Shown here in pieces: positions 38,025 through 59,556 of a stretch of DNA of 63,090 bases. Below the pieces are notes generated by a model, which did no database searches, had not been told where the DNA came from, and saw nothing but the letters and a program-made list of their open reading frames with translations. Made by a program: the position numbers and the translations under genes. Position 1 is the first letter of the stretch, and each line of letters starts with the position of its first letter. Origin of the DNA: an uncultured Gemmatimonadaceae bacterium (GTDB lineage: Bacteria > Gemmatimonadota > Gemmatimonadetes > Gemmatimonadales > GWC2-71-9); contig CAZFKN010000004.1 in assembly GCA_964519805.1 (NCBI GenBank), positions 1 through 63,090 on the forward strand. The letters run 5' to 3'.

Positions 38025-38044
38025 GTGGCATCTCCGTCGCCGGA

Positions 38045-38626: not shown

Positions 38627-38657
38627 CGAGGGTCGATGGCGCCGGCGCTCGCCGGCG

Positions 38658-44218: not shown

Positions 44219-44239
44219 TACTAAACAGAGGCGATCCGC

Positions 44240-44899
44240 ATGTCAGACGAAGCCAGCGCTGCTAGCACTGCCCCCCGGTGGCAACGCCGCCCCGAGGCCC
44301 GGCCGGAAGAAATTCTCGACGCGGCTCTCGAGGTATTCGGCGAGCACGGTTTTGCGCAGGCCAAGCTCGAGGATGTCGCGCGCCTGGCAGGCGTCAGCAA
44401 GGGGACGCTCTACCTGTACTTCGATTCCAAGGAAACGCTCTTCCGGGAAATGGTGCAAGCGAAAGCCGTCGCGGCGGTGCGCGAAAGCGAGGCCTTCGTC
44501 GAGGCGTTCCAAGGCTCGAGCCGCGATCTCCTGGTCGAGCTGATGAAGCGCAAGTACGCCATCATGCGGGATCAGCAGCTCAGCCGCATCAGCAAGCTGG
44601 TGCAGTCGGAGCTCCAGCGGTTCCCGGAGCTGGCGCACTTCTACGTGCAGGAGGTCATCCTGCCGGCTCGCCGCCTGGTCGAGCGGATTCTCGACCGGGG
44701 TGTGGCTGCGGGCGAGTTCCGGCGCACCAGCCACGGGTTCGCCACGCGCGGCCTGCCGATGCTGCTGATCCAGGCGACCCAGACGCAGTGCTTCTTCCAG
44801 CAGTTCGACCCTGAAGCGCTGAGCGACGAGCAGACGCTCGAAGGTCTCGTCGACTTCGCGCTGAACGGCGTGCTGGCCCGCCCCGAACCCGCACGCTAG
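44240..44899 (+). CDS. TetR/AcrR family transcriptional regulator
   Basis: The N-terminal HTH is ILDAALEVFGEHGFAQAKLEDVARLAGVSKGTLYLYFDSKE. Confidence 0.85.
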   Translation: MSDEASAASTAPRWQRRPEARPEEILDAALEVFGEHGFAQAKLEDVARLAGVSKGTLYLYFDSKETLFREMVQAKAVAAVRESEAFVEAFQGSSRDLLVELMKRKYAIMRDQQLSRISKLVQSELQRFPELAHFYVQEVILPARRLVERILDRGVAAGEFRRTSHGFATRGLPMLLIQATQTQCFFQQFDPEALSDEQTLEGLVDFALNGVLARPEPAR

Positions 44900-44905
44900 C
44901 CCGCC

Positions 44906-46228: not shown

Positions 46229-46253
46229 TCGGACACGAACCGAGACGCATCCC

Positions 46254-47351
46254 ATGGCTACCGATATCGCGATGGATCTCCCCGGCGCCCAGGCCGCCCC
46301 CGAGGTGGGCGCTCGCCGGAAGCGCCTGCCGCTCGTCCTCCTCGGCGCGCTCGTCATCTCCGTCGCCGTCTGGGGCGGCCGCAAGTACATCTACGGCCTG
46401 AGCCACGTCACCACCGACAACGCGCAGCTCGACGGGCACATCACGGTGATCGCGCCCAAGGTCGCGGCATTCGTCTCACGGGTGCTGGTGGACGACAACC
46501 AGCATGTAAAGGCAGGCGACACTCTCGTCGTCCTCGACGATCGGGACCTCCTCGTCCGCCTTCAGCAGGCGGAGGCCGACCTCGCGGACGCGCGTGCCGC
46601 GGCCGGTGGGGCGCACGGTCCCGGTCAGGCCGGCGCGCAGCTGGCGTGGAGTCACGCAGAGCAGGCCAGCGCGCAGGCCAACGTCGTCTCGGCCCAGGCG
46701 GGCTTCAAGCGGGCCGCCGCCGACCTCGACCGGATTCGCGGCCTGGCGGCAAACCGCATTGTCCCGCCGCAGCAGCTCGACGCGGCACAGGCGGCGTACG
46801 ACGCCGCCGCCGCCCAGCTGGAATCCGCGCGCAAGCAGGCCGCTGCCGCGGGTGATCAGGTCTCGGCGTACGGCGCGGCGCTCTCGGGCGCCGGAGCGCG
46901 GCTGGCGGCCGCGGAGGCCGCGGCCGACAACGCGCGGCTTCAGGCCAGCTACGCGCACATCCTAGCCCCGACCGACGGGATCGTCGCCAAACGGAGCGCG
47001 GAGGTCGGGGCGCTGGTCCAGTCGGGCCAGACACTCATGTCGATCGTGCCCGACCACGACGTGTGGGTCACGGCGAACCTCAAGGAGACCCAGCTCGAGC
47101 ATGTCGCTGTCGGTGACAAGGCGACGTTCACCGTGGATGCCTACCCCGGACACGTCTTCCACGGGCACGTCGAGAGCCTGAGCCCCGCGACCGGCGCTCG
47201 CTTTTCGCTGCTCCCGCCGGACAACGCGACCGGAAACTTCACCAAGGTCGTGCAGCGGGTGCCTGTTCGGGTTGCCGTGGACGATGCGCCCGACCTGGCG
47301 CGGCCGTTGCGGCCGGGCATGTCGGCGGTCGTGGACATCGCCACCCGGTAG
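46254..47351 (+). CDS. HlyD/EmrA family membrane fusion protein
   Basis: It has an N-terminal TM segment, a lipoyl-like motif (APKVAAFVSRVLVDDNQHVKAGDTLVVLD), a long Ala/Gln coiled coil and a C-terminal barrel. Confidence 0.85.
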   Translation: MATDIAMDLPGAQAAPEVGARRKRLPLVLLGALVISVAVWGGRKYIYGLSHVTTDNAQLDGHITVIAPKVAAFVSRVLVDDNQHVKAGDTLVVLDDRDLLVRLQQAEADLADARAAAGGAHGPGQAGAQLAWSHAEQASAQANVVSAQAGFKRAAADLDRIRGLAANRIVPPQQLDAAQAAYDAAAAQLESARKQAAAAGDQVSAYGAALSGAGARLAAAEAAADNARLQASYAHILAPTDGIVAKRSAEVGALVQSGQTLMSIVPDHDVWVTANLKETQLEHVAVGDKATFTVDAYPGHVFHGHVESLSPATGARFSLLPPDNATGNFTKVVQRVPVRVAVDDAPDLARPLRPGMSAVVDIATR

Positions 47352-47359
47352 ATCGGCCG

Positions 47360-48949
47360 ATGGCGACGATGTCGCTGCCGGCCAGGACCGGCGGCCTGCA
47401 ACGGGCGGACGTCTACCGCTACCGCTATCTCATCGCGTTCGCGGTGGCGCTGGCAAGCGTGCTGGAGCTGGTGGACACCAGCATCGTCAACGTGGCGATC
47501 CCCCACATGATGGGTGAGCTGGGCGCCACGCTGGACGAGATCGCCTGGGTGTCCACCGGCTACATCGTGGCCAACGTGATCGTGCTGCCGCTCACAAGCT
47601 GGCTGTCGGCCCGGTTCGGACGGCGGAACTACTACACCGGCTCCATCATCGTCTTCACCATTGCGTCGTTCCTCTGCGGCAACGCCTCGTCGCTCGAGAT
47701 GCTCGTGGCCGGGCGGGTCATCCAGGGCATCGGGGGGGGCGCACTGATCTCCACTGCCCAGGCGATCCTGTTCGACGTGTTCCCGGTGGAGGAGCGGGCC
47801 GCGGGTCAGGCAATCTTCGGGATGAGCGTGATGGTCGGACCCACGCTGGGGCCGACGCTCGGCGGCTGGATCACCGACAACTACTCCTGGCCCTGGATTT
47901 TCTACATCAACCTGCCGCTCGGCGTGCTCGCCGGGTTTCTGACGTGGCGGCTCGTGCCGGAGCCGGCGCACGAGGCAGAGCACGAGACCGAAACGGTGGA
48001 CTGGTGGGGCCTGGCGTTCCTGATTCTGGGCATCGGGGCGCTGCAGATCATGCTGGAGCGCGGAGAAGCCAAGGACTGGTTCGACTCGCGCGAGATCGTC
48101 GTCGAAGGGATCCTCGCGGCGATCGGCGTGGTCTGCTTCATCTGGCACGAGCTGCGGACGGATCACCCGATCGTCGACCTCCGCATTCTCCGCAATCGCC
48201 AGCTCGCCGTCGGCGTCACCTTCGCCGTGCTGCTCGGCTTCGCCCTCTACTCGAGCGTGTTCGCTCTGCCGGTGTTCCTCCAGAACGTCCTCCAGTACAC
48301 GGCCTGGGACACCGGCAAGGTCATCCTGCCCGGCGCGATCTCGAGCGCGATCGCGATGGCCATCGTGGGGCGTATTGCGTCCAAGGTGGACGCCAGACTG
48401 CTCATCACCACCGGCGTGCTGATGTTCCTGTCCTCCATGTGGATGCACTACCACTTCACGATCGAAACCGGTCTCCCGGATATGTTCTGGCCGATGGTGC
48501 TTCGCGGGTTCGGCATCGGTCTTGTGTTCGTGCCGCTTACGGGCGCCACGGTGGCGGACCTGACACCGGGGCAGATCCCCCAGGGAACCGGTCTGTTCAA
48601 TCTCTCGCGCCAGCTGGGCGGGAGCTTCGGGATCGCGGTGACCGCGACGCTGCTGAGCCGCTTTACCGATCATGCCCGGAGCGCCCTCGCAGCGCACCTC
48701 ACCGCCTCGGACACCGCGACCCGCGGGTGGCTCGACGCGGTCACCCGGTCGATGCAACACCTGGGCGGCTCCCTCGCGCAGGCGCAGCTCAAGGCCTCGG
48801 CCCTGCTCGACCTCCGGCTCAATCAGCAGGCATCGGTGTTCGCCTTCGAGAAGGTCTTCCTGATCATGGGCCTCTCCTTCACGGCGGTGCTCCCGCTCCT
48901 GCTGCTCTTCCGGACGGGCCGAGCGCGCGGAGGCGGGATGGCGCACTGA
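47360..48949 (+). CDS. DHA2 family MFS efflux pump (EmrB/QacA type, 14 TM)
   Basis: 529 aa. The motifs LDTSIVNVAIPHM, GRRN and GGALIST are typical of EmrB. Confidence 0.85.
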   Translation: MATMSLPARTGGLQRADVYRYRYLIAFAVALASVLELVDTSIVNVAIPHMMGELGATLDEIAWVSTGYIVANVIVLPLTSWLSARFGRRNYYTGSIIVFTIASFLCGNASSLEMLVAGRVIQGIGGGALISTAQAILFDVFPVEERAAGQAIFGMSVMVGPTLGPTLGGWITDNYSWPWIFYINLPLGVLAGFLTWRLVPEPAHEAEHETETVDWWGLAFLILGIGALQIMLERGEAKDWFDSREIVVEGILAAIGVVCFIWHELRTDHPIVDLRILRNRQLAVGVTFAVLLGFALYSSVFALPVFLQNVLQYTAWDTGKVILPGAISSAIAMAIVGRIASKVDARLLITTGVLMFLSSMWMHYHFTIETGLPDMFWPMVLRGFGIGLVFVPLTGATVADLTPGQIPQGTGLFNLSRQLGGSFGIAVTATLLSRFTDHARSALAAHLTASDTATRGWLDAVTRSMQHLGGSLAQAQLKASALLDLRLNQQASVFAFEKVFLIMGLSFTAVLPLLLLFRTGRARGGGMAH

Positions 48950-48980
48950 GGCGGCGCGTTTCATACTTCTCGCCGCTCCC

Positions 48981-50465
48981 ATGACCGTTCAGCGGAAGCT
49001 CCTCCTCGGTTTCTCCCTCATGGCCCTCCCCGCCCTGCTCGTCGGCGCCGAGGCCATCCGCAGCAACGCCCTTGAGCGTCGCGCCCTCGAGGCGCTCGGC
49101 GAGAGCCTCGCCCGCAACCGGACCTACGCCGACGTCGAGAACGCCATGTTCGACCAGACGGAGGCGATCTGGCGACACCTCACCGGCCTCGATCCCGAAG
49201 CCCGGCAGGAGTGGCGGCTCGGCGGCGAGGTGGTCGATTACTGGCTCGATCGCTGGGCCGTCCAGCTGCCGCCCGAGCAGATGGACCTGGCGAACGGCGT
49301 GCGCCAGATTCAGCGCGAGATCCGCGCGACGGGCGACAGCGTGATCGCGCTGGCCGACGGGGGTAAGCGGGAGGCCGCGTATGCGCTCGCCCGGAGCGAG
49401 CTCAAGCTCCGGCTGCTCCCGGGTCTCGCGCGGGTGAACCGGGAGATCTACCGCCGGACGCGCGAGTCGAGCGTCCAGCAGGCGTTCACCCGCGTGGAGC
49501 AGATCGTGGACACGGAACGGCGGCTGCTCGTCGGGATTTTCGCCGCGGCCATCGGGGCGGGCCTCCTCGCCTCCTGGCTGATCACCCGCAGCATGGTGCG
49601 CCCGATCAACGAGCTTCGCGGAGCCATGGGCGTCGTCGGTGCCGGCGACCTGGAGCACCCGATCGCCACTCAGCGCCAGGACGAGATCGGCGACCTGGCG
49701 CGTGCCTTCGCCGATATGACCGGGCGCCTGCGCCAGACCCAGGCCAAGCTGGTGCAGTCCGAAAAGCTCGCCTCGATCGGCGAGATGTCCGCCGCGGTCG
49801 CACACGGCCTGCGGAATCCGCTCGCGAGTCTCCGCGCGGCCGCGCAGTTCGCGCTCAAGCGTCCTGACTCGCCGGCGTCGCGGGAGCAACTGAGCGCCAT
49901 CGTCGACGAGGTCGACCGGCTCGACCGCCGCATCACGCACCTGCTGAGCTTCTCTCGACCCGCGCCGTTCCATCCGATGCGCGAAGGCGTGGCTCAGCTG
50001 GTCGAGGGCGTGTTGCCGGCCTTTGCTCAGCTGCTCGAAGAGCCGAAAGTCGAGCTGAGCGTTGATGTGCCGTCGGACCTGCCCGTGGTTCTGGTCGACC
50101 CGATACAGATGGAGCAGACCCTGGTGGAGCTGATCTCCAATGCGCTCGATGCGATGCCCGCCGGAGGCCGGCTGACAATCGGCGCGCGGCGCGAAGCGGG
50201 CGGGGTTGGCGACCGGGACAGCGTCGTCGTCAGGATCGCCGACACCGGCGGCGGCATTCCCGAGGAGGCGCTGGCCCGCGTGAGCGAGCCGTTCTTCACG
50301 ACACGGGCCGAAGGGACCGGACTGGGACTCGCCATTGCGAAACGCTACGTCGAGCAGAACGGCGGCCGCCTCGAGATCACGAGCCGGACGGGAGAGGGCA
50401 CGACCGTGAGCGTGCGACTCCCCGCGGCCGCGGACGCCGCGGACGCAACCGGGAGGAGCGCATGA
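48981..50465 (+). CDS. Sensor histidine kinase (periplasmic sensor, HAMP, HisKA, HATPase_c)
   Basis: It has a TM-flanked N-terminal domain and a HAMP domain (RPINELRGAMGVVGAGDL). The H-box is SIGEMSAAVAHGLRNPL. N, G1 and G2 boxes are present (DTGGGIP, GTGLGL). Confidence 0.85.
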   Translation: MTVQRKLLLGFSLMALPALLVGAEAIRSNALERRALEALGESLARNRTYADVENAMFDQTEAIWRHLTGLDPEARQEWRLGGEVVDYWLDRWAVQLPPEQMDLANGVRQIQREIRATGDSVIALADGGKREAAYALARSELKLRLLPGLARVNREIYRRTRESSVQQAFTRVEQIVDTERRLLVGIFAAAIGAGLLASWLITRSMVRPINELRGAMGVVGAGDLEHPIATQRQDEIGDLARAFADMTGRLRQTQAKLVQSEKLASIGEMSAAVAHGLRNPLASLRAAAQFALKRPDSPASREQLSAIVDEVDRLDRRITHLLSFSRPAPFHPMREGVAQLVEGVLPAFAQLLEEPKVELSVDVPSDLPVVLVDPIQMEQTLVELISNALDAMPAGGRLTIGARREAGGVGDRDSVVVRIADTGGGIPEEALARVSEPFFTTRAEGTGLGLAIAKRYVEQNGGRLEITSRTGEGTTVSVRLPAAADAADATGRSA

Positions 50466-51877
50466 GCGGCCCGACCGTGCTCATCGTGGACGATGAGCGC
50501 ACACTCGCCCGCGCCGTAAAGGCCTTTCTTGCCGAATCCGGCTATGAGGCCGAAGTCGCCGGGGACGCCGAGACGGCGCTGGCCCTGCTGGAGCGCCTTC
50601 GGCCGGACGTGGTCTTCAGTGACGTGCGCCTCCCCGGGATGAGCGGGATCGATCTGCTCAAGCGCATCCGGGAGTTCGACGCCGCGATCCCGGTCGTCAT
50701 CATGACCGCGCACGGCACCATCGAAGGAGCGGTGGAGGCGGTGAAGCTGGGCGCGTTCGACTACCTCAAGAAGCCGGTCGATCTCGAGGAGCTGAAGCTG
50801 CTGGCCGACCGCGCCCGGGAGCAGTCGCGCCGCGAGGGAGAGCTGTCCTACTACCGTCGCCAGGCGGCCCGCGAGGAGGGGTTCGGCGGCGTCGTGGGCG
50901 AATCGCCGGCGATGCGCGCCGTGCTCGAACGAGCCCGCCAGATCGCCGCGCTCGAGGAGACCCCGCCGGTGCTGATCACCGGCGAGACCGGTACCGGCAA
51001 GGGGCTCGTCGCCCGAACCATCCACGCGTCGGGCATCCGCTCGGACAAGCCCTTCATCGACGTCAACTGCACGGCGCTGCCTGGATCGCTGATGGAAGCC
51101 GAGCTGTTCGGCTATGAGCGTGGTGCCTTCACGGATGCGAAGGAGTCCAAGCTCGGCCTGTTCGAGGCGGCGGAGGGGGGGTTCATTTTCCTCGACGAGG
51201 TCGGCGACATCGAGCTGGCCCTCCAGGGGAAGCTCCTACGCGCCATCGAGGAGCGCACGGTTCGGCGCGTGGGAGGCATACGGGATCGCACGATCGACGT
51301 GCGCATCCTGGCGGCGACGAACCGGGACCTCGAGCGTGAGTCCCAACGTGAGCGATTCCGCAAGGATCTCTACTTCCGGCTCGCGGTCATCCTCCTCCGC
51401 CTGCCACCCCTTCGCGAGCGGGGCGACGACGTGCTGCGGCTGGCGGATCACTATCTGCGCCAGTTCAGCGCCAAGTACGGTCGCGATGTGCGGCGCATCG
51501 ACGCGCTCGCACGCGAGCGCCTGCTGCGTTACCCGTGGCCCGGCAACGTCCGGGAGCTGAGCCATGTCATCGAGCGGGCGGTGCTGTGGAGCCAGGGGTC
51601 GGTCCTCGAGGTTGAGCACCTGTCCCTCACAACGGCGGCTGAGGACGCTGAGGCGGCCGAGGCGGTCGGCAACGGCGACCCCGAGCAGACCACGGGGGGC
51701 GCACCGGTGCCGGCGGCCTTCCCGCCACCCGGTGTGGACCTGGCCCAGTGGGAGAAGGCGATGATCGAGCAGGCGCTCCGGGAGGCCGGGGGTAACCAGA
51801 CGCGGGCCGCGCAGCGGCTCGGCATCTCACGTGACACGCTGCGCTATCGGCTGAAAAAGTTTGGCATCCAGGGGTGA
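50462..51877 (+). CDS. Sigma-54-dependent response regulator (NtrC family)
   Basis: A receiver domain is followed by an AAA+ domain with GETGTGKG, the GAFTDA loop and ERFRKDLYFRL. The C-terminal Fis-type HTH is NQTRAAQRLGISRDTLRYRLKK. An ATGA overlap joins it to the kinase gene. Confidence 0.9.
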   Translation: MSGPTVLIVDDERTLARAVKAFLAESGYEAEVAGDAETALALLERLRPDVVFSDVRLPGMSGIDLLKRIREFDAAIPVVIMTAHGTIEGAVEAVKLGAFDYLKKPVDLEELKLLADRAREQSRREGELSYYRRQAAREEGFGGVVGESPAMRAVLERARQIAALEETPPVLITGETGTGKGLVARTIHASGIRSDKPFIDVNCTALPGSLMEAELFGYERGAFTDAKESKLGLFEAAEGGFIFLDEVGDIELALQGKLLRAIEERTVRRVGGIRDRTIDVRILAATNRDLERESQRERFRKDLYFRLAVILLRLPPLRERGDDVLRLADHYLRQFSAKYGRDVRRIDALARERLLRYPWPGNVRELSHVIERAVLWSQGSVLEVEHLSLTTAAEDAEAAEAVGNGDPEQTTGGAPVPAAFPPPGVDLAQWEKAMIEQALREAGGNQTRAAQRLGISRDTLRYRLKKFGIQG

Positions 51878-51881
51878 ATCG

Positions 51882-51923
51882 GCGGTGGGTGATATAACCC
51901 ACTTGGATGAGATCACCCACCGC
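51882..51923. promoter_or_regulatory. Perfect 12-nt inverted repeat GCGGTGGGTGAT-18 nt-ATCACCCACCGC (enhancer site or terminator)
   Basis: It starts 5 nt after the NtrC-like stop. A third ACCCAC copy lies in the loop. Its centre is about 120 nt upstream of the candidate -24/-12 element. Confidence 0.35.
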
Positions 51924-52020
51924 TTGGTCCTGTCCGACGATTCAGCGCCGCTGCAAGAGGGCGCCGTAAAAGCCTACGGTATAATCAGTTAGATCGAGAC
52001 GTCCAACACGTTGGCCGTTT

Positions 52021-52036
52021 CGGCATGGCATCTGCC
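52021..52036 (+). promoter_or_regulatory. Candidate sigma-54 (-24/-12) promoter upstream of pqqA
   Basis: cGGCATGgcatcTGCc has GG-N10-GC spacing identical to the TGGCACG-N4-TTGC consensus, with 4 mismatches at the 14 specified consensus positions. It lies about 100 nt upstream of the pqqA ATG, next to a sigma-54 activator gene. Confidence 0.35.
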
Positions 52037-52137
52037 TATAACAGGGCGTCGTCGGGTTCTTGCAAGGCCCGACTGGGTGAAGGCACCCAACCCGATCGGG
52101 CCACTTGGCCCCAATCACTCACCAAGCGGAGGTTCAG

Positions 52138-52212
52138 ATGCGTTGGACCAAGCCCGAAGCCGAAGTCGTCGCCGTCACGATGGAAGTCACCGCGTACGTC
52201 GCGACCCTCTAA
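52138..52212 (+). CDS. pqqA: Coenzyme PQQ precursor peptide PqqA (24 aa, not in ORF track)
   Basis: The translation is MRWTKPEAEVVAVTMEVTAYVATL. The W-x-K-P N-terminus and the E-x3-Y (EVTAY) cross-link motif are present. GGAGG lies 5 nt upstream, and the gene sits directly upstream of pqqBCDE. Confidence 0.8.
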   Translation: MRWTKPEAEVVAVTMEVTAYVATL

Positions 52213-52233
52213 GACTGCGGCATCAGGACTGCG

Positions 52234-52266
52234 GGGGCTCGCGCAAGCGAGCCCCTTAGCTTTTTA
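52234..52266 (+). terminator. Hairpin plus T-rich tail between pqqA and pqqB (attenuating terminator)
   Basis: GGGGCTCGC-gcaa-GCGAGCCCC forms a 9-bp stem and is followed by TTAGCTTTTTA. Confidence 0.55.
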
Positions 52267-52288
52267 GGCCCGAGGTCGCGACCCGAAG

Positions 52289-53200
52289 ATGCAGATCATC
52301 CTTCTTGGTACGGCCGCCGGCGGCGGCTTCCCCCAATGGAATTGCTGGTGTCCGAGCTGCCGCGTAGCCCGGCATGAGCCCGGGCGCGCGCTCGCCCGTA
52401 CCCAGTCTTCCGCGGCCGTGACCGCGGACGGGAAACGGTGGTTCCTGCTCAACGCTTCGCCGGACGTGCGCGAGCAACTCGCCCGGCTGCCGGTCGAGCC
52501 GCCGAATGGGCCACGCCATGTCCCGGTGGCCGGCGTGGTCGCGACCGATGCCGAGCTGGACCACACGCTCGGTATCGTGCTCCTGCGCGAGGGGCGCCGC
52601 CTTCAGCTTTATCTGACCTGCGCGGTGCGACAGGTGCTCGAGCGCGATTCCAGCATTCTCCCGGTCACCCGCGCCTTTGCGGAGGTCGAGGTGGTCGAGT
52701 TGCCGCCCCAGGGCGGGCCGGTCTCCCTGACCTACCCGGATGGCGCCGCGAGCGGGCTCTCGGTCGAGACCTTCCCGGTGCCCGCCGGTCCTCCCAGGTT
52801 CGCGAGCGAGGAGGTTGCCGGCCACACGGTGGGGCTCGTGCTGCGTGACCAGGCGACGGGCGGGTCGTGCGCGTTCGTGCCCGGGTGCGGCGGGCTCGAC
52901 GACGGTCTGCTGGCTCGACTCGACGCGGTCGATCTTGCCCTGTTCGACGGCACGTTCTGGACCGACGATGAGCTGATCCGGCTTGGCATCGGCGACCGCA
53001 CGGCGCGCCAGATGGATCACCTGCCTGTCTCGGGACCGGGCGGCAGTCTGGAGCAGCTGGCCGCCCTGCGGACGCCCCGCCGGGTGTACACCCACATCAA
53101 CAACACCAATCCGATGCTCGTCGAGGATTCGCCCGAGCGGGCGCTGGTCGTGGGACGCGGGCTCGTGGTCGGCATGGACGGGATGCGGTTCGACGTATGA
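52289..53200 (+). CDS. pqqB: PQQ biosynthesis protein B (metallo-beta-lactamase fold)
   Basis: MQIILLGTAAGGGFPQWNCWCPSC is the typical PqqB N-terminus. 303 aa. Confidence 0.9.
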   Translation: MQIILLGTAAGGGFPQWNCWCPSCRVARHEPGRALARTQSSAAVTADGKRWFLLNASPDVREQLARLPVEPPNGPRHVPVAGVVATDAELDHTLGIVLLREGRRLQLYLTCAVRQVLERDSSILPVTRAFAEVEVVELPPQGGPVSLTYPDGAASGLSVETFPVPAGPPRFASEEVAGHTVGLVLRDQATGGSCAFVPGCGGLDDGLLARLDAVDLALFDGTFWTDDELIRLGIGDRTARQMDHLPVSGPGGSLEQLAALRTPRRVYTHINNTNPMLVEDSPERALVVGRGLVVGMDGMRFDV

Positions 53201-53964
53201 ACGGAGCAACGATGACGACAGTGACCTTCCAGGCCTCCCAACTCGCGACTCCGCCCCAAGCACCGTTCCCGTCGCTCGACCGGCCACTCGCGCCCGACGA
53301 GTTGGAGCAGGCCCTTCGTAACTTCCAAGGCTCGTACTACGTGGAGCACCCGTTTCACAAGCTGATGTACGAGGGGAAGCTGACCCAGCGTCAATTTCAG
53401 GGCTGGGTGGCGAACCGCCTCGCCTATCAGCGGGTGGTTCCGCGGAAGGACGCCGCCATCCTGTCGAACTGCCCGGACCCCGATGTGCGCCGGGAGTGGA
53501 TCCAGCGCATCATCGACCACGACGGCACGGCGCCCGGCACCGGCGGCATCGAGCTGTGGATCCGCCTCGGCATAGCCCTCGGGGTGCCGCGCGAGGAGAT
53601 GGAGGACGAGCGCCATGTCCTGCCGGCCGTGCGGCTCATCTGCGAATCGTACGTCACGTTCTGCCGCACCAAGCCGTGGGTGCAGGCGTGCGCGTCGTCC
53701 CTCACCGAGCTGTTCGCCCCCAAGATCCACCAGCAACGGATCGAGGCGTTTCCCAGGCACTACCCCTGGATTCCACCGGAGGGGCTCGACTACTTCAGGA
53801 GCCGTCTGGTGCAGGCCCCCCGCGACGTCACCCATGGGCTTGCCATCGTCAAGCGACACTGTACCACGGTCGACACCCAGCGCGCGGCGTTCGAGGCCCT
53901 CGCCTTCAAGCTGGACATGCTCTGGGCGATGATCGACACCATCCACCATGCCTACCTCGACTGA
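53197..53964 (+). CDS. pqqC: Pyrroloquinoline-quinone synthase
   Basis: The YYVEHPFHKLMYEGKLT...RREWIQRIIDHDG pattern is typical of PqqC. An ATGA overlap joins it to pqqB. Confidence 0.9.
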   Translation: MNGATMTTVTFQASQLATPPQAPFPSLDRPLAPDELEQALRNFQGSYYVEHPFHKLMYEGKLTQRQFQGWVANRLAYQRVVPRKDAAILSNCPDPDVRREWIQRIIDHDGTAPGTGGIELWIRLGIALGVPREEMEDERHVLPAVRLICESYVTFCRTKPWVQACASSLTELFAPKIHQQRIEAFPRHYPWIPPEGLDYFRSRLVQAPRDVTHGLAIVKRHCTTVDTQRAAFEALAFKLDMLWAMIDTIHHAYLD

Positions 53965-54235
53965 GCGCGGCGTGCCTCTGAGTCCCGACTCCGTCCCCCG
54001 CCTCTGGCGGCTTGCGCGGCTCGACTACGACCCGGTCCGGCAACGGCGCATCCTCCTCTATCCTGAAGGCGCGGTGCTGCTGAACGACACGGGAGCCGCC
54101 GTGCTCGAGCTGGTGGACGGCAAGCGGACCATAACCGAGATCGCCCGGGTTCTGGGCGAGCGTTACGAGACCGACGTAACCGCCGATGTGACCGAGTATC
54201 TGTCGGGCTTGGCGGAGAGAGAGCTGATCCAATGA
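53948..54235 (+). CDS. pqqD: PQQ biosynthesis peptide chaperone PqqD
   Basis: 95 aa. The pattern LYPEGAVLLNDTGAAVLELVDGKRTITEI is PqqD-like. The gene lies between pqqC and pqqE. Confidence 0.85.
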   Translation: MPTSTERGVPLSPDSVPRLWRLARLDYDPVRQRRILLYPEGAVLLNDTGAAVLELVDGKRTITEIARVLGERYETDVTADVTEYLSGLAERELIQ

Positions 54236-55323
54236 CGTCCGACCGTCCCACCACGCTGCTGGCCGAGCTGACCCATCGGTGTCCGCTCCATTGTCCGTAT
54301 TGCTCGAACCCGCTCGAGCTGATCCGCGCGGATGCCGAGCTTTCCACCGACGACTGGAAGCGGGTCTTCACCCAGGCTCGTCAGCTGGGCGTGCTCCAGC
54401 TCGGCCTTTCCGGAGGCGAGCCGCTCGTGCGGAAGGACCTCGAGGAGCTGGCGGCCCACGCGCGCGGCATCGGGCTGTACAGTACCCTGGTGACCTCCGG
54501 GCTCGGCCTGACACGGAAGCGCGCCGAAGCACTGCGCGAGGCCGGGCTCGAGCACATACAGGTCTCCATTCAGGATTCCGACACCGAATCGGCCGAGCGA
54601 ATCGCCGGGGTGAGCTCGGTGAAGCAGAAGCGCGCCGCCATCGCCCTGGTGAAAGAGCTGGGCTTCGCGTTCTCGATCAACGTTGTGCTCCATCGGGCGA
54701 ATCTCGACCGGATCGGTGAGCTGATCGACCTGGCCGGCAGCCTGGGCGCCGACCGCCTGGAGTTGGCCAACACGCAGTACTACGGCTGGGGGCTCAAGAA
54801 CCGGGCGGCGCTGATGCCGACGCGGGAGCAGGTGTACAAGGCCAGGGAGATCGCGGAGGCGGCGATCGACCGGTACCGGAAGAAGATGCAGATCCTCTTC
54901 GTGCTGCCCGACTACCACGAGCAGTACCCCAAGGCCTGCTACGGTGGGTGGGGCAAGCTCTATATCGTGGTCGCGCCCAACGGGCAGGCGCTGCCGTGTC
55001 ATGCGGCGAGCAGCATCACGTCGCTCTCGTTCCCGACGGTCCGGGAGCACTCGCTCGAGTGGATCTGGCAAGAGTCGCCGGGGTTCCAGGCGTTCCGCGG
55101 GGACGGATGGATGAAGGAGCCCTGCCGCACCTGCCCCCGCAAGGCGGTGGATTTCGGTGGCTGCCGCTGCCAGGCCTTCGCGCTCACAGGCGACGCGGCC
55201 AATCCTGATCCCGTCTGCACGCTCACTCCGTTCCGCGGGATCATCGACGAGGCGCTGGCGGAGCCGACGGGCACGGTCGGCTACGAGTATCGCGTGCTCA
55301 CGGGAGAGCCCCAGCGCGCGTGA
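54232..55323 (+). CDS. pqqE: PqqA peptide cyclase (radical SAM/SPASM)
   Basis: The CxxxCxxC motif is in LTHRCPLHCPYCSNP. The C-terminal SPASM cysteines are CRTCPRKAVDFGGCRCQA. 363 aa. Confidence 0.9.
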   Translation: MTSDRPTTLLAELTHRCPLHCPYCSNPLELIRADAELSTDDWKRVFTQARQLGVLQLGLSGGEPLVRKDLEELAAHARGIGLYSTLVTSGLGLTRKRAEALREAGLEHIQVSIQDSDTESAERIAGVSSVKQKRAAIALVKELGFAFSINVVLHRANLDRIGELIDLAGSLGADRLELANTQYYGWGLKNRAALMPTREQVYKAREIAEAAIDRYRKKMQILFVLPDYHEQYPKACYGGWGKLYIVVAPNGQALPCHAASSITSLSFPTVREHSLEWIWQESPGFQAFRGDGWMKEPCRTCPRKAVDFGGCRCQAFALTGDAANPDPVCTLTPFRGIIDEALAEPTGTVGYEYRVLTGEPQRA

Positions 55324-56273
55324 GCCCGGCCCGCGGTGCGGCCGCACCGGGCCGGGTGCCCCTGGCGATTCAGGCCGAGGGCCTCGGCCGGGACTATGGC
55401 ACGACCCGGGCGCTCGACGCGCTCGACCTCCGGGTGCCGGCCGGATCGCTCGTCGGGCTGGTCGGCCCGAACGGTGCGGGCAAGACGACGACAATGCTGC
55501 TCCTCGCCACCCTGCTCGCGCCGAGCCGGGGCTCGGCCCGCGTCTTCGAGCGCGACGTGACCCGCGACCGGGCGGGGGTCCGCCGGCTCCTCGGGCTCGT
55601 TTTTCAGGAGCCCAGCATCGACGGGCTTCTCACGGTCGAGGAGAATCTTCTGTTCGCCGGGCGGCTGGCCGGCATCGGCGGCGAGGCGGTACGGACGGCG
55701 GTGCAGCAGGCGATAGCCCGAACCGGACTCGCCGCTCGGGCAGCGCAGCCGGCGCGGCAACTCTCCGGTGGCTGGCGACGCCTCGCCGACATCGCCCGAG
55801 CGACTCTGCATCGACCCGACCTCCTCATCCTCGACGAGCCGACGGTCGGGCTCGACCCCGAGCACCGCGATCGCATGTGGAGCCTGCTCGATGTCGAGCG
55901 GCGCGAGCGCGGCGCGACGATCCTCTTTTCCACCCACTACCTGTCAGAGGCCGAGCCGGCGGATCGCGTCGTGATGCTCGCACGCGGGTCCATGGTCGCC
56001 GATGCGCCGCCGGCCGTGCTGCGCGCCGAGCTCGGCGATCAGGTAGCCGAGATCGATGGACCGGGCGCGGACGCCCTCGTAGCCGACCTGCGGGGCGCGG
56101 GACTCGTGGTGATGGCCCACCGATCGGAACGGGGCTGGCGCGTGGGACTCACAGGCTCGCGGGAGCACGTGACCGAGCTTGCGGCGGCGGCTCCGGGAAT
56201 CGCGCGCCTCGTGATCCGGCCGCCGACGCTTGAAGACGTCTATTTCGGGCGCACCCAGGCACCAGCGGCATGA
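55320..56273 (+). CDS. ABC transporter ATP-binding protein (DrrA/ABC-2 type)
   Basis: The GTG start overlaps the pqqE stop (GTGA). Walker A is GPNGAGKTT, the signature is LSGGWRR and Walker B is LLILDEP. Confidence 0.85.
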   Translation: MSPARGAAAPGRVPLAIQAEGLGRDYGTTRALDALDLRVPAGSLVGLVGPNGAGKTTTMLLLATLLAPSRGSARVFERDVTRDRAGVRRLLGLVFQEPSIDGLLTVEENLLFAGRLAGIGGEAVRTAVQQAIARTGLAARAAQPARQLSGGWRRLADIARATLHRPDLLILDEPTVGLDPEHRDRMWSLLDVERRERGATILFSTHYLSEAEPADRVVMLARGSMVADAPPAVLRAELGDQVAEIDGPGADALVADLRGAGLVVMAHRSERGWRVGLTGSREHVTELAAAAPGIARLVIRPPTLEDVYFGRTQAPAA

Positions 56274-57046
56274 ACAAGGCCGCGACCGTCCGGGGCATCG
56301 TCGTGCGGGACCTGATCCGGACCACGCGACAGCGGAGTCGCCTGGTGGCGGGCGTCGCCCGGCCTTTCATTTGGGTCTTCCTGATCGGCGCGGGCTTCAA
56401 CTCGATCGCCCGAATCGAGGGCGGGCTCAGCTATCAGGCGTTCGCGTATCCAGGCGGGATCGTCATGGCGGCCCTGTTCGGGGGGATGCTCACGGCGATC
56501 TCGACGGTATACGACCGCGAGTTCGGGATGCTGCGGCTCATGCTCGCGAGCCCGTCGGGAGTGCTCGCGGTGCTGACCGGCCGGGCGCTGTCGGCCACGA
56601 TCATCGGAGGAGTGCAGGGCGGCATCGTGCTGGCCTGCGCCTCCCTGGCTGTGCGACTCACGCTGCCGCAGTATGCCCTCTCCGCTGGCGGCCTCGCGCT
56701 GATCGCGTTCACGAGTGGGACCCTCGGGCTCCTGGTCGCCGCGCGTCTTACGTCGGTGGAGAACTTCGGCGGCGTCATCAACATCGTCCTGTTTCCGCTG
56801 CTGTTCGTAAGCGGGGCGCTCTATCCAACCGCCGGCATGCCCGCGCCCCTGCGGACGCTGGCCCGCGTGAACCCGGTGACCTACATGGTGGATCTGATCC
56901 GCCACACGTTCGGGCAGCCGGCCGAATTCGCGCTGTCGCTCGACGTGGGTGCCCTGGTGATCACCGCCGTGGTGGCGTTCGGAGTGACGATGGCGGTGTT
57001 CGATCCGGAGCAGCGGTTTGTCGGAAAGGGAGGTAACAGCCATTAG
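56270..57046 (+). CDS. ABC-2 type transporter permease
   Basis: 258 aa with 6 TM segments and an ABC2_membrane-like pattern. An ATGA overlap joins it to the ATPase gene. Confidence 0.8.
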   Translation: MNKAATVRGIVVRDLIRTTRQRSRLVAGVARPFIWVFLIGAGFNSIARIEGGLSYQAFAYPGGIVMAALFGGMLTAISTVYDREFGMLRLMLASPSGVLAVLTGRALSATIIGGVQGGIVLACASLAVRLTLPQYALSAGGLALIAFTSGTLGLLVAARLTSVENFGGVINIVLFPLLFVSGALYPTAGMPAPLRTLARVNPVTYMVDLIRHTFGQPAEFALSLDVGALVITAVVAFGVTMAVFDPEQRFVGKGGNSH

Positions 57047-57086
57047 CCGTTAGCTGTTGGTTCGAATCGGTCAACGCCTAACAGCC
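57038..57086. repeat. Mirrored heptamer arrays (AGCCATT family) forming an imperfect hairpin at the ABC-2 permease/hypothetical junction
   Basis: Plus strand reads AGCCATT AGCCGTT AGCTGTT. After a 14-nt centre, the reverse complement of 57073-57086 reads GGCTGTT AGGCGTT. Both TAG stops (57044-57046 and 57078-57080) lie inside units. Confidence 0.65.
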
Positions 57087-57893
57087 CCGCTCCTCCCGCT
57101 CCAGTTGGTCCCTTTGCTCGATCCTTGCCTGAACCGGGCGCCCGACCCGCGCTTCCGCCGGGACATACGTCTCCACGGTGATCCGACGGTCTCGGCGGAG
57201 CAGTCCTTCGCGCAGACCCCACGCAAACGTCCCGTCTTCCCGCACCGACTGCCGCAGCCTGAGCGGGAGACTGTCACCGCGGAGCTTCGCTTCGGCCACG
57301 TCCCGTCGGATCGTCAGGCGGAACCGATAGACTGGGCCGGCACCGGCGCTGTCCGCCAGCCTGCGGATCTCGAGACCGGTACCGTCGGCCCAGGTTTCCC
57401 CGACGGCCGGCAGGCGCGGGGGCAGGCGCGGCAGCAGATCGTCGAGGGACCGGGCAAGATCGGCGACTTCGAGGAGCGGATCGGGCACGAACGGCCGGGC
57501 CTCCGCCCGGTAGCGGCCGTCGCTGCTCAGGAGCCCGCGAAAGCGGCCGCCGATGATGGGATCGGTGTCGGGGTTCAGGCTGTCCTGCTCCGAGTGCCGC
57601 CATACCGCGAGACTGTCGAACCAACCCTCCAGATGGACTGAGTCTCCGTCGGCGGGCGCGGCGCGAAAGCGCCATTCGCCGTCGAGCCCGACGGCTTCGC
57701 GCCGAGCCCGCCCAGCGACATAGGTCGCGACCTCACTCCGGCGGGTCTCGTTGAACGCGGCGCAGTCCAGCTGTGCCGCGATGTATCGGACGGCCTCGGG
57801 ATTCCGTGGGACTCCGCGGCGCGGGGCCACGCCGCCGCTGACGACGAGCGCGGACATGAGCGCCAGGGCCGTGCTTCGTGGACCCTGGGTCAC
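57078..57893 (-). CDS. Hypothetical secreted protein
   Basis: The signal-like N-terminus is MTQGPRSTALALMSALVVSGG. The composition is coherent and I recognise no family. Confidence 0.45.
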   Translation of the reverse strand: MTQGPRSTALALMSALVVSGGVAPRRGVPRNPEAVRYIAAQLDCAAFNETRRSEVATYVAGRARREAVGLDGEWRFRAAPADGDSVHLEGWFDSLAVWRHSEQDSLNPDTDPIIGGRFRGLLSSDGRYRAEARPFVPDPLLEVADLARSLDDLLPRLPPRLPAVGETWADGTGLEIRRLADSAGAGPVYRFRLTIRRDVAEAKLRGDSLPLRLRQSVREDGTFAWGLREGLLRRDRRITVETYVPAEARVGRPVQARIEQRDQLEREERGC

Positions 57894-57930
57894 GGCCCTG
57901 TCTGGTTAGGCGGTAGGCGTGACCCGGCCG

Positions 57931-59556
57931 TCAGGGCTCCTGCATGAAGGGGTAGCGCCAGTCTGTGGCCGGCACGAACGTCTCTTTGACCGTGCGGGGC
58001 GACACCCAACGGACCAGGTTGAGGATCGAGCCGGCCTTGTCGTTCGTGCCGCTCGCCCTCGCGCCACCGAACGGCTGCTGCCCCACGACTGCGCCGGTGG
58101 GCTTGTCGTTCACGTAATAGTTGCCCGCAGCGTTCCGCAGGGCACGGTCGGCCTCGGCGATGGCACCCCGGTCCTGAGCGAATACCGCGCCGGTAAGGGC
58201 GTAGGGGCTCGTCCGGTCGACAAGATCCAGTGTCTCGGTCCAACGCGCCTCCGGGTACACGTGGACCGTGAGCACGGGACCGAAGATCTCCTCGCACATG
58301 AGTCGGTAACCGGGGTCGGCCACCTGAAGCAGCGTGGGCTGGATGAACCAGCCGACCGAGCCGTCCGCACCGCCGCCCGCCAGCACGATGACCCCCGGAT
58401 CCCGCTTGGCGCGTTCGAGGTGCCCGCTGATGCGCTCGAAGGCCCGCCGGTCGATGACGGCCCCCATGAAGTTCCGGAAATCCCCGACGTCGCCCATGCG
58501 GATCTCGCCGATCATCCCCACGACCCGGTCTCGCACGGCGGGCCAGAGGTTGTCGGGGACGTATGCCCGCGACGCCGCACTGCACTTCTGCCCCTGATAC
58601 TCGTACGCCCCGCGGACGAGCGCCACGGCCAAAGCGTCCACATCCGCGCTCGCGTGCGCGACCACGAAATCCTTCCCGCCCGTTTCGCCGACGATCCGGG
58701 GGTACCCGACGTAACGCTCGAGGTTCTGCGCTACACGCTGTTGCAGCATCCGGAAGACTGGCGTGGAGCCGGTGAAGTGGATGCCTGCCAGCATCCGGTG
58801 CCCCAGCAGCACCTCGCTCACCTGCGCCGAATCGCCCGAAACGAAGTTGATCACGCCCGGGGGCAACCCGGCCTCCTCCAGCAGCCGGAAGAAATGCCAG
58901 TTGCTCAGCGCCGCGGTGTGCGAGGGCTTCCACACGACCACGTTCCCCAGAAGCGCGGGAGCGGTCGGCAGGTTGCCGCCGATCGCCGTGAAGTTGAACG
59001 GCGTGATCGCGTAGACAAATCCCTCGAGCGGCCGGTGATCGAGTCGATTCCACACGCCCGCTGACGACTCCGGCTGTTCCCGGTAGAGGCGCTCGGCGAA
59101 GTGGACGTTGAACCTGAGGAAGTCGATCAGCTCGCAGGCGCTGTCGATCTCCGCCTGGTGGGCCGTCTTGCTCTGACCGAGCATGGTCGCTGCGTTGAGC
59201 AACGGACGGTAGCGCGCCGACAGGAGATCCGCGGCCTTGAGGAAGACGGCCGCGCGGTCCTCGAATCGCCAGTGGGACCATTCTCGCCGGGCGTCGAGCG
59301 CGGCCTCGACCGCGCGCTCGACGAGCTCCGGCGTCGCCTGGTGCAGGTCGCCCAGGATCCGGGCATGGCAATGCGGCGCGGTGACCGGTTCGGTCCGGCC
59401 CCGGTGCGCGCGGCCGCCAATGACGACGGGGATGTCCGCCCGTTCGGCGCCGACCGCCCCGAGGGCGGCCTTGAGTGCCGCCCGCTCGGCGGTGCCGGGC
59501 GCATAGGAGAGCACCGGCTCGTTTCGGGGCACCGGGATGTTCGACGTGCTGCTCAT
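57931..59556 (-). CDS. pruA: L-glutamate gamma-semialdehyde (1-pyrroline-5-carboxylate) dehydrogenase
   Basis: 541 aa in the aldehyde dehydrogenase family. The motifs are ETGGKDF and GQKCSAASR (catalytic Cys). The N-terminus and length are typical of PruA/RocA. Confidence 0.85.
   Translation of the reverse strand: MSSTSNIPVPRNEPVLSYAPGTAERAALKAALGAVGAERADIPVVIGGRAHRGRTEPVTAPHCHARILGDLHQATPELVERAVEAALDARREWSHWRFEDRAAVFLKAADLLSARYRPLLNAATMLGQSKTAHQAEIDSACELIDFLRFNVHFAERLYREQPESSAGVWNRLDHRPLEGFVYAITPFNFTAIGGNLPTAPALLGNVVVWKPSHTAALSNWHFFRLLEEAGLPPGVINFVSGDSAQVSEVLLGHRMLAGIHFTGSTPVFRMLQQRVAQNLERYVGYPRIVGETGGKDFVVAHASADVDALAVALVRGAYEYQGQKCSAASRAYVPDNLWPAVRDRVVGMIGEIRMGDVGDFRNFMGAVIDRRAFERISGHLERAKRDPGVIVLAGGGADGSVGWFIQPTLLQVADPGYRLMCEEIFGPVLTVHVYPEARWTETLDLVDRTSPYALTGAVFAQDRGAIAEADRALRNAAGNYYVNDKPTGAVVGQQPFGGARASGTNDKAGSILNLVRWVSPRTVKETFVPATDWRYPFMQEP

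Follow-up and report, generated by a model that had tools for sequence, protein, structure and literature searches.

Bacteria make PQQ in the cytoplasm but use it in the periplasm, and for the membrane step between the two only candidates have been put forward (PMC7391723, PMC12124388), so that the preliminary description of the locus studied here, which called the export route unresolved, agrees with the literature; in recent papers, PqqB is still sometimes credited with PQQ transport (PMC11503474). The closest described transporters, PedBC and LutEF, act in lanthanide uptake, PedA1A2BC and LutAEF being needed for lanthanide-dependent growth and the uptake of lanthanide into the cytoplasm (PMC7391723, PMC12997753). 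In the literature accessible to us, our search found no described linkage of pqqE to an ABC-2 transporter and no identified PQQ exporter. Wan et al. 2017 is cited by others for transporter candidates in Gluconobacter.

The window, by which we mean the whole analysed stretch of 63,090 nucleotides from an uncultured Gemmatimonadaceae bacterium, carries an ABC ATPase gene and an ABC-2 permease gene directly behind pqqE, and this pair is a concrete candidate for the missing membrane step. The locus is made up as follows.

48981-50465, plus strand: sensor histidine kinase (Pfam HAMP/HisKA/HATPase_c)
50462-51877, plus strand: sigma-54-dependent response regulator (Pfam Response_reg/Sigma54_activat/HTH_8)
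52022-52035, plus strand: candidate sigma-54 promoter, -24 GG / -12 GC, GGCATGGCATCTGC (read from sequence)
52138-52212, plus strand: pqqA, 24-codon precursor peptide with a Glu-x3-Tyr pair, E16 and Y20 (read from sequence)
52233-52256, plus strand: terminator-like hairpin 3' of pqqA, 10 pairs (8 G-C), T-rich tail (consensus scan)
52289-53200, plus strand: pqqB (TIGR02108, 343.7 bits, cut-off 245)
53197-53964, plus strand: pqqC (TIGR02111, 314.6 bits, cut-off 240)
53948-54235, plus strand: pqqD (TIGR03859, 75.7 bits, cut-off 46)
54232-55323, plus strand: pqqE, radical SAM/SPASM (TIGR02109, 523.7 bits, cut-off 381)
55320-56273, plus strand: ABC ATPase, 317 aa (PF00005, ABC_tran, 101 bits)
56270-57046, plus strand: ABC-2 permease, 258 aa (PF01061, ABC2_membrane, 102.7 bits, gathering score 26.9)
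57028-57097, no strand assigned: hairpin between the stop of the permease gene and that of a convergent hypothetical gene at 57078-57893, minus strand (RNA fold)

With PqqB, PqqC, PqqD and PqqE all above the NCBIfam equivalog cut-offs and PqqA containing the E-x3-Y pair, the genes at 52138-55323 form a canonical pqqABCDE operon, and the ATPase and the permease follow through two start/stop overlaps of 4 nucleotides each. At the first, GTGA at 55320-55323 holds the pqqE stop (TGA, 55321-55323) and the ATPase start GTG; at the second, ATGA at 56270-56273 holds the ATPase stop and the permease start ATG. Both overlaps had been claimed earlier and both are seen in the sequence, and the further claim that the pqq transcription unit ends, on its 3' side, with the pair is supported. 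The pqqE/ATPase overlap recurs in 70 of the 77 loci of the window's clade and in all 10 loci of a second clade (80/87 together), the ATPase/permease overlap in 64 of the same 77 and in 66/87 over related loci; an overlap of the form NTGA comes cheaply by chance when the stop is TGA, and these counts are informative because, from clade to clade, the frame relation stays constant and the intergenic distance is zero. As the overlapped ATPase start leaves only 3-8 residues ahead of the conserved first strand in about 80 orthologous loci and is ATG every time in the shorter clade, we take it to be the natural one. An alternative in-frame GTG at 55356 was rejected on comparison of these loci.

The histidine kinase and the sigma-54 regulator (48981-51877) lie directly 5' of the pqq operon, and both precede pqqB in nearly all family-level relatives. 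Judged from its letters only, 52022-52035 may be a sigma-54 promoter, the GG-to-GC spacing of 12 fitting the TGGCAC-N5-TTGC consensus, and the hairpin at 52233-52256 after pqqA is likely to be an attenuator. A consensus scan of 51800-58000 gave no promoter-like site, and within the ATPase and permease reading frames, it gave only weak terminator-like matches (55585-55643 and 56349-56361, stems of 5-6 pairs); such matches numbered 5 against 1.8 +/- 1.6 in shuffles, which is near chance, and none fell at a gene junction. The hairpin at 57028-57097, which contains the permease stop, folds at -24.8 kcal/mol with a modest z of -2.07 and has no T tract. The neighbours at the locus are the pqq genes, the hypothetical gene and a P5C dehydrogenase gene. 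A fused M16 protease operon elsewhere in the window (38658-44021) was considered as PqqF and put aside; it is the genome's best PqqF-like match, yet its 80 bits lie far below the cut-off of 320.

The ATPase consists of a nucleotide-binding domain and a C-terminal regulatory-type domain of about 60 residues. Its motifs are intact (Walker A GPNGAGKTT, signature LSGGWRR, Walker B LLILDEPT, H-loop STHY), and the full set of Walker A, Q-loop, signature, Walker B, D-loop and H-loop occurs without variation in 13 orthologues; the best full-length structural matches of its AF2 model (pLDDT 87.9) are TM_1403 (4yer), NosF and the ABCA NBD with R domain. The permease, an N-terminal amphipathic helix followed by six membrane helices (AF2 model, pLDDT 94.6), is matched by Foldseek to ABCG25, KpsM, ABCG5/8, NosY and TarG with probability 1.00 and TM 0.6-0.7. 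The models thus support an exporter-type pair of ABC-2/type V fold, without an adjacent binding-protein gene; none was found beside the pair in any clade examined. With NosY and NosF among the best structural matches of the two subunits, and the regulatory domain at the C-terminus of the ATPase matched as well, the pair might also be a NosFY-like maturation helper, ATP driving a periplasmic assembly step such as the loading of apo-quinoproteins. We give this only a slight chance, given that no clade has a linked periplasmic partner gene (an analogue of NosD or NosL) and that the periplasmic loops of the permease model are short.

In sequence, the pair falls below the cut-offs of every curated family and sits between DrrAB and PedBC. 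On the DrrAB models, the ATPase reaches 209.4 bits (TIGR01188, cut-off 312.45) and the permease 144.6 (TIGR01247, cut-off 223.05), and on the PedBC models, they reach 198.1 (TIGR03864, cut-off 302.25) and 145.2 (TIGR03861, cut-off 241.35), true members of the latter family scoring 314-340 bits for the ATPase and 352-443 bits for the permease. The preliminary label of a DrrAB/ABC-2 type exporter, then, stands for the ABC-2 exporter type and falls for DrrAB specifically, the scores being equal on PedBC and DrrAB and under both cut-offs. Residues common to all pqq-linked permease clades are Q21, R31, L74, R89, N165, A167, F175, L209 and E247, of which several lie on helices TM2 and TM5a; the list of clade-specific residues is partly circular and a lead only, the ENFA motif being among the patterns used to retrieve the loci.

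Pairs of this kind recur after pqqE in several phyla, which refutes the idea of a linkage unique to this genome. Among 401 Gemmatimonadota genomes, the permease is found at 40% identity or more in 42, and in 42/42 it lies on the same strand, 0.8-1.1 kb downstream of pqqE, one of these loci being split by a contig end. In the best 80 loci from species-representative genomes, the order pqqE-ATPase-permease is seen in 71, the other 9 are ended by contig ends, and none of the informative loci lacks pqqE; three of the 80 are Acidobacteriota MAGs with pqqBCDE and the pair in differing flanks, which implies that the module moves as a unit. A metagenome scan found pqqE in 53 of the 59 loci having enough upstream sequence and added two further permease clades behind pqqE. 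Four such clades are now seen: two are Gemmatimonadales and mutually only 38-43% identical, the third, one of those from the metagenome scan, has members named 'Burkholderiales bacterium' (MAGs) and loci spanning 40-69% G+C, and the fourth is small; a plasmid search with the permease of the low-GC clade gave no match. Across several clades and phyla, the pair co-occurs strictly with the pqq genes. Generic relatives behave differently: the next-best matches in Acidobacteriota, at 184 bits or less, are in genomes without pqqE or lie far from it, and the metagenome loci that are 50% identical or less to the representative P0135 are without pqqE. All this bears on the simplest alternative, an incidental neighbour, in which case the pair would be a general efflux pump functionally unrelated to PQQ. 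ABC-2 pairs are indeed common and mobile, and sister species dispense with this one, but the zero intergenic distance at both junctions, the absence of any close relative away from pqqE, and the same arrangement in several clades and phyla, transferred as a unit, make an incidental neighbour already very unlikely, with hardly any probability left to it.

The reverse association is looser. The pair is missing from 45 of the 87 pqqE-positive Gemmatimonadota sampled, where pqqE then abuts the same convergent neighbours, and from 13 of the 14 pqqE-positive genomes in a sample of 301 Acidobacteriota. On a tree of PqqB, PqqC and PqqE, genomes without the pair are nested in pair-bearing genera, three in one (g4: G371, G019, G170), two in another (g38: G201, G239) and further ones in the g7/g26/g43 clade, from which about four or more losses follow; the pair has been lost repeatedly within genera, with the pqq genes kept. 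Repeated loss fits an accessory function that modulates fitness, and one such function would be, in place of delivery to the periplasm, the clearing of residual fragments of PqqA or of a reactive intermediate, or the keeping of redox-active PQQ at a low level in the cytoplasm. PQQ derives from a ribosomal peptide via a radical SAM/SPASM enzyme, and ribosomal-peptide clusters of this type often hold ABC-2 pairs for export or immunity, one example being the alb operon for subtilosin, where AlbC/AlbD stand next to M16 peptidases. Within the window, however, no peptidase is coupled to the pair, the data on the permease cavity do not tell peptide from small-molecule cargo, and the proposal overlaps with PQQ export, which would detoxify the cytoplasm as well; we consider such by-product export or self-protection rather improbable.

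A more serious rival to PQQ export comes from lanthanide-related transport. The pair could be a stripped-down relative of PedBC/LutEF that moves a lanthanide, or its chelate, for DYD-type PQQ dehydrogenases and resides in the pqq operon because both cofactors are supplied together. TIGR03861 (PedC) is the best curated match of the permease in every clade, and in a permease tree of 49 rows, a branch with 97% SH-aLRT support separates the pqq-linked clades and true PedC from DrrB-like proteins, the Burkholderiales-type clade grouping with PedC; the deep branches among the pqq-linked clades are weakly supported and do not resolve a single origin. On a plasmid of Variovorax boronicumulans, a true PedB-PedA2-PedA1-PedC set directly follows pqqE (314 and 352 bits, both above cut-off), and linkage to pqqE alone thus does not identify PQQ as the cargo. 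The genome itself encodes four PQQ-ADH-like propellers and one sGDH, on contigs other than that of the pqq operon in the case of the PQQ-ADH genes; the best propeller has a signal peptide, and a WDYDG motif, as is typical of lanthanide enzymes, is present in the top PQQ-ADH; the main PQQ dehydrogenase is predicted to be periplasmic and of the lanthanide (DYD) type. Against this stand the modest scores of the pqq-linked permeases on TIGR03861, 145-178 bits compared with at least 352 for true PedC, and the gene content: no PedA1 binding protein or PedA2 propeller adjoins the pair in any of about 190 loci, the window's flanks and related loci included, and no cluster of PQQ dehydrogenase or pedF surrounds the locus. 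The PedA1 model TIGR03863 has 0 matches in the genome, a weak negative as it matched no control genome either. Import without a binding protein would moreover be unusual, and the pair follows pqq genes, not dehydrogenase genes. On balance, we hold lanthanide transport to be unlikely, if still a serious rival, and the kinship with PedBC and the Variovorax operon mean that the cargo must be settled by experiment and not be assumed.

The best reading of the locus is that the pair is a PQQ exporter, and we favour it tentatively, at somewhat less than an even chance; both the substrate, PQQ, and the outward direction are inferred. On this reading, the product of the two genes is an ABC-2 (type V) exporter of the homodimer type; the genes form the closing part of the pqqABCDE operon in both transcription and translation and are probably controlled by the neighbouring sigma-54 two-component system. 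The pump would spend ATP in moving finished, cytoplasm-made PQQ, a tricarboxylate anion, over the inner membrane, and the exported PQQ would then load the signal-peptide-bearing quinoprotein dehydrogenases encoded in the genome. Such a route would be dedicated but accessory, not the sole one, since the pair is absent from many PQQ producers, sister species among them, and to our knowledge no such pair occurs in the classical producers Klebsiella, Acinetobacter, Gluconobacter, Pseudomonas and Methylorubrum; nor can a dedicated pump be required, as E. coli with only the pqq genes still releases PQQ.

As a physical part of the operon for PQQ biosynthesis, the pump is carried by hundreds of lineages from soil, fresh water and the sea, and the pair may serve to raise PQQ secretion in production strains. 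The kinship with a lanthanide-uptake ABC transporter and the Variovorax operon joining pqqE to Ped genes suggest a common evolutionary root for both transport problems of quinoprotein biology. A wider proposal, which we find possible but doubtful, is that the binding-protein-less pairs following pqqE are the dedicated exporters of PQQ that have been missing and form with PedBC/LutEF one ABC-2 superclade for quinoprotein cofactor logistics, PQQ out and lanthanide in, whose arms have been swapped 3' of pqqE across lineages.

Compared with known systems, the pair shares with DrrA/DrrB and NodI/NodJ the two-gene ABC-2 exporter architecture without a binding protein, and its ATPase has a C-terminal domain and aligns to DrrA over the full length (residues 25-308); unlike these systems, the window locus lies outside any polyketide or nodulation context, and DrrB-like proteins are an outgroup in the tree. 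The solved type V exporters ABCG25, ABCG2, KpsMT, NosFY and TarGH resemble it in the permease fold (TM 0.65-0.70) and in the fold of the ATPase with R-domain but are only 12-20% identical in sequence to the window proteins and serve unrelated substrates (hormone, drugs, capsule, Cu/S maturation, teichoic acid). With PedBC of Pseudomonas putida and LutE/LutF of Methylorubrum extorquens, the pair has in common its make-up of an ABC ATPase with an ABC-2 permease and its tie to the biology of PQQ, PedC being the best or joint-best curated match of the window permease and on the same side of the supported branch, and the Ped system, too, can follow pqqE. It differs in being joined to biosynthesis genes and not to a catabolic cluster, in standing without PedA1, the PedA2 beta-propeller, an adjacent PQQ dehydrogenase or pedF, and in the extra C-terminal domain on the ATPase of the window's clade, while Ped and Lut are both reported as lanthanide importers. 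Closest in proposed function, on a comparison by description only, is META1p2359 of Methylorubrum extorquens AM1, likewise an ABC exporter without a binding protein and a proposed route of PQQ to the periplasm; it is, however, a fused ATPase-membrane polypeptide, unlinked to the pqq genes and essential for growth on methanol (PMC7391723).

The pair closes a run of genes whose layout in the window, with the convergent gene beyond it, is as follows.

48981-57046, +: the whole run, starting with a sensor kinase (HAMP and HisKA Pfam domains)
between the sensor kinase and pqqA, within 48981-57046, +: sigma-54-dependent response regulator
52138-52212, +: pqqA, 24 codons, E16-x3-Y20
52233-52256, +: strong hairpin with a T-rich tail directly after pqqA (consensus scan)
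within 48981-57046, +: pqqB, pqqC, pqqD and pqqE, in that order after the hairpin
55320-56273, +, and 56270-57046, +: ABC ATPase and then ABC-2 permease, the last genes of the run
57078-57893, -: gene, convergent with the pqq operon, for a 271-aa hypothetical protein that matches nothing in Pfam or NCBIfam

Each of PqqB, PqqC, PqqD and PqqE exceeds its curated NCBIfam equivalog cut-off, and the hairpin at 52233-52256 fits the need for pqqA transcript in excess over pqqB-E. In the consensus scan, 51800-58000 contained no promoter-like site; weak terminator-like matches lie inside the ATPase and permease reading frames (55585-55597, 55626-55643 and 56349-56361; stems of 5-6 pairs), none of them at a gene junction, and the five terminator-like sites in the scanned region, against 1.8 +/- 1.6 in shuffles, are near the shuffle level. 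At its 3' end the unit has a modest hairpin in common with the convergent hypothetical gene, after which comes a P5C dehydrogenase gene, also convergent. The preliminary description had the transporter translationally coupled to pqqE, and both overlaps are indeed present: the GTGA at 55320-55323 contains the stop of pqqE and the start of the ATPase gene, and the ATGA at 56270-56273 the ATPase stop with the permease start. When the start codon closest to the upstream stop is chosen per locus, a 4-nt overlap joins pqqE to the ATPase gene in 70 of 77 loci of T1, the permease clade of the window, and in 10/10 loci of T2, a second Gemmatimonadales clade, and it joins ATPase to permease in 64 of the 77 T1 loci, with T2 gaps of -4 to +4 nt; the counted loci are partly non-independent because some contigs sit in both fetched sets. 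Across P0139, a further pqq-linked permease clade, ATPase and permease genes overlap in 24 of 34 loci, and the pqqE-ATPase spacing varies more, being -4 nt in 11 loci and mostly <120 nt. Because the overlapped start leaves 3-8 residues ahead of the conserved 'AIE.EGLGRDYG' strand in the N-terminal alignment and T2 ATPases start with ATG in every case, the ATPase start codon originally called is right; the window's genus carries an insertion of ~10 residues there. The gene arrangement argues strongly that the pair would be co-transcribed and translationally coupled with pqqE.

Read off the sequence, the GG-N10-GC element at 52022-52035 resembles a sigma-54 promoter. In almost all family-level relatives a kinase and sigma-54 activator stand 5' of pqqA; they also precede the divergent second pqq module, and PQQ synthesis under sigma-54 control seems to be a trait of the family. 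The gene at 57078-57893 keeps its convergent position beside the P5C dehydrogenase gene across the family, with or without the ABC pair. Elsewhere in the window, 38658-44021 (-) encodes a TPR protein, an ABC ATPase, a 236-aa permease without any family match and an 870-aa fused double M16 peptidase, chained by overlaps. We considered this peptidase as a possible PqqF and set the idea aside: it is the genome's best PqqF-like match, yet it reaches only 80 bits where the cut-off is 320, and its top family matches are YfmF/YfmH-like.

The ATPase (317 aa) has the full set of catalytic motifs, invariant in an alignment of 13 orthologues, and its AF2 model (pLDDT 87.9) comprises a nucleotide-binding domain and a small C-terminal domain; over its full length the model is structurally closest to TM_1403 (4yer), to NosF including the R domain and to the ABCA4, ABCA7 and ABCA1 NBD-R modules, and the closest solved chains by sequence are ABCA NBDs. 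The permease (258 aa, pLDDT 94.6) is modelled with an amphipathic helix at the N-terminus and six membrane helices, and it matches ABCG25, KpsM, ABCG5/8, NosY and TarG. The architecture is that of a type V, exporter-type ABC system, and the pair is intact. Of the earlier label, a DrrAB/ABC-2 type exporter, the exporter-type architecture thus survives and membership of DrrAB does not: both proteins fall short of every curated NCBIfam cut-off, the ATPase scoring 209 bits on DrrA (TIGR01188; cut-off 312) and 198 on PQQ_ABC_ATP (TIGR03864; 302), and the permease 145 bits on both PedC (TIGR03861; 241) and DrrB (TIGR01247; 223). The T2 ATPase, at 250 aa, is without the C-terminal domain. That an exporter of this kind serves to discharge a by-product or to protect the cell from its own product seems to us distinctly unlikely.

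Among 401 evenly drawn Gemmatimonadota genomes, 87 of which have pqqE, the permeases form three bands by identity to that of the window: T1 at >=56% (29 genomes; genera g1, g4, g23 and g38), T2 at 40-43% (13 genomes; g9, g10, g17, g40 and one g3 genome) and a generic tail at ~30% in many genomes of various genera. By coordinates, T1 and T2 permeases lie on the pqqE strand, 0.8-1.1 kb downstream of pqqE, in 42/42 genomes, related genomes being non-independent observations and the result unchanged without the unpublished G057; in G395, the two genes are split over facing contig ends. Generic-tail permeases are located elsewhere in the genome, away from pqqE. At close sequence range the pair is never away from the pqq genes, and that it is an incidental neighbour is scarcely credible. 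All 42 pair-bearing genomes belong to the window's own family, and the pair occurs in 0/12 pqqE-positive genomes of the sister family in this sample.

The synteny of forty fetched loci is constant: kinase, sigma-54 regulator, pqqABCDE, the pair or nothing, convergent hypothetical gene and convergent P5C dehydrogenase gene, pqqE directly adjoining the convergent gene where the pair is missing. Pair-less genomes (genera g7, g8, g26, g43 and g49, 3/24 g4 genomes and 2/5 g38 genomes) are placed among pair-bearing ones in a tree of concatenated PqqB+C+E (FastTree, midpoint root), with G371 sister to pair-bearing G121, G201 sister to G214 plus G378, and a g7/g26/g43 clade inside the T1 region. The parsimonious reading is a single gain with about four or more later losses, the direction of change being our interpretation as the FastTree tree carries no outgroup. 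Since T2 pqqBCDE are 47-57% identical to those of the window, the sigma-54 regulator ~73%, and the ATPase is shorter, T2 represents a different pqq-plus-pair module in the same chromosomal slot; in loci L043-L052 (g9, g10, g17, g40 and genome G062), it looks as if a foreign copy has replaced the entire pqqBCDE-plus-pair module. The pair is inherited and transferred jointly with the pqq genes. Both the loss pattern and the second module in the same slot are new here.

The linkage, whose recurrence the preliminary description had left to a survey of genes downstream of pqqE, is not unique to the window's genome: besides the 42/42 Gemmatimonadota, a pattern scan of species-representative genomes, with the best 80 of 193 relatives kept, gave the order pqqE-ATPase-permease in 71 loci, the other 9 being interrupted by contig ends and pqqE absent from 0 of the 80. 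Acidobacteriota MAGs account for three of these best 80, namely a Luteitalea, a Vicinamibacteria bacterium and a third with the locus on a 911-kb contig, and their flanking genes differ; the Luteitalea locus (WHSN01000035.1) has an S9 prolyl-oligopeptidase-family gene upstream of pqqB, a PqqM-like position, and a convergent gene for a cytochrome-c-fused PQQ dehydrogenase (quinohaemoprotein) downstream of the permease gene. In 301 sampled Acidobacteriota genomes (the samples include unpublished G555 and G452, on which no claim rests), pqqE occurs in 14 and the pair in only one of these, and the next-best permease matches (<=184 bits) come from genomes without pqqE or lie on other contigs or megabases from it. 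An all-against-library HMMER search gave 49 representatives at E of 1e-30 or better, and a metagenome scan seeded with the more distant of these returned 80 loci. Upstream pqqE was found in 35 loci of P0139, three of P0134 (another pqq-linked clade), 14 T2-like and one T1-like; 21/80 are not long enough to judge, and the 6/80 without pqqE diverge most, with 34-57% identity to any reference. Motif conservation among loci is biased by the pattern-based fishing. P0139 cluster members include MAGs named 'Burkholderiales bacterium' and 'Betaproteobacteria bacterium', the loci range in G+C from 40% to 69%, and the genes 3' of the permease are unrelated housekeeping ones (glnS, pcm, rhodanese, tolC, a JmjC-family gene), which puts the end of the module at the permease. 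Loci at 40% G+C whose neighbouring genes are gammaproteobacteria-like occur as well. The literature searched contains no description of the pqqE-ABC-2 arrangement.

Export of PQQ or of a PqqA-derived peptide had been proposed at the outset. PQQ is the simplest candidate cargo, as it is the operon's product, has to cross the inner membrane and is assigned no protein for that step in the literature searched; it may well be what the pair carries, and we hold this tentatively. Repeated loss tempers the PQQ-export reading, and we know of no classical PQQ producer with the pair, which would make it at most a dedicated accessory route; a role as a maturation helper is very improbable. The source genome (98.6% complete) encodes four PQQ-ADH-like propellers, one exceeding the TIGR03075 cut-off, and one soluble glucose-dehydrogenase-like protein. 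The best PQQ-ADH (contig C36, 13077-14678; L153) combines a clear signal peptide with a WDYDG motif, and a second (contig C166; L155) has WDYDP. An Asp two residues beyond the catalytic Asp is the mark of lanthanide-dependent enzymes (XoxF/PedH-type); judged by these motifs, the genome's PQQ dehydrogenases look lanthanide-dependent, and Gemmatimonadales may use lanthanide quinoproteins. No PedA1-type binding protein was found in the genome, a weak negative because the same model scored in no control genome either.

The nearest named kin of the pair are PedBC/LutEF, implicated in lanthanide uptake (PMC7391723, PMC12997753). Named cultured Ped references came from plasmid matches to the P0139 permease. 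Gemmobacter, Sulfitobacter and Azospirillum have the classic pedA1 (binding protein), pedA2 (beta-propeller), hypothetical gene, pedB and pedC, adjoining a PQQ methanol/ethanol dehydrogenase gene and pedF in the first two and amid C1-transfer genes (formylmethanofuran, methanopterin pathway) in the third. Variovorax boronicumulans EBFNA2 has a true Ped system directly behind pqqE, in the order pedB, pedA2, pedA1, pedC, with pedB overlapping pqqE by 7 nt and with ATPase (314 bits) and permease (352 bits) both exceeding NCBIfam cut-offs. At this locus (plasmid NZ_CP138497.1, record 36892-49482), the Ped genes are followed by those for a TctC-family tricarboxylate-binding protein, a large 4Fe-4S protein, an ApbE flavin transferase and a TonB receptor; the 4Fe-4S/ApbE gene pair likewise flanks the Gemmobacter Ped cluster. 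The uptake kinship of PedBC, the true Ped system at the same position in Variovorax and the lanthanide-type look of the genome's dehydrogenases all temper the PQQ-export reading; that the pair itself serves lanthanide- or metal-related transport is unlikely in our judgement. The Variovorax operon, the DYD-type dehydrogenase and a tree with PedC among pqq-linked clades are likewise new here. On TIGR03861, the pqq-linked pairs lacking a binding protein score 145-178 bits, in contrast to 402-443 for classic PedC (Gemmobacter, Sulfitobacter, Azospirillum) and 352 for that of Variovorax. The 49-row permease tree (IQ-TREE quick search, SH-aLRT support, no outgroup) resolves T1 (100), T2 (99), P0134 (100), P0139 (95) and PedC (100) as clean clades and groups PedC, P0139 and six representatives at 87%, its deep branch order not being settled. 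A 97% branch places these five clades and seven unplaced representatives opposite 16 DrrB-like proteins. By bit scores and tree, these proteins therefore form a PQQ-associated ABC-2 assemblage, and within it the pair of the window is a family separate from PedBC.
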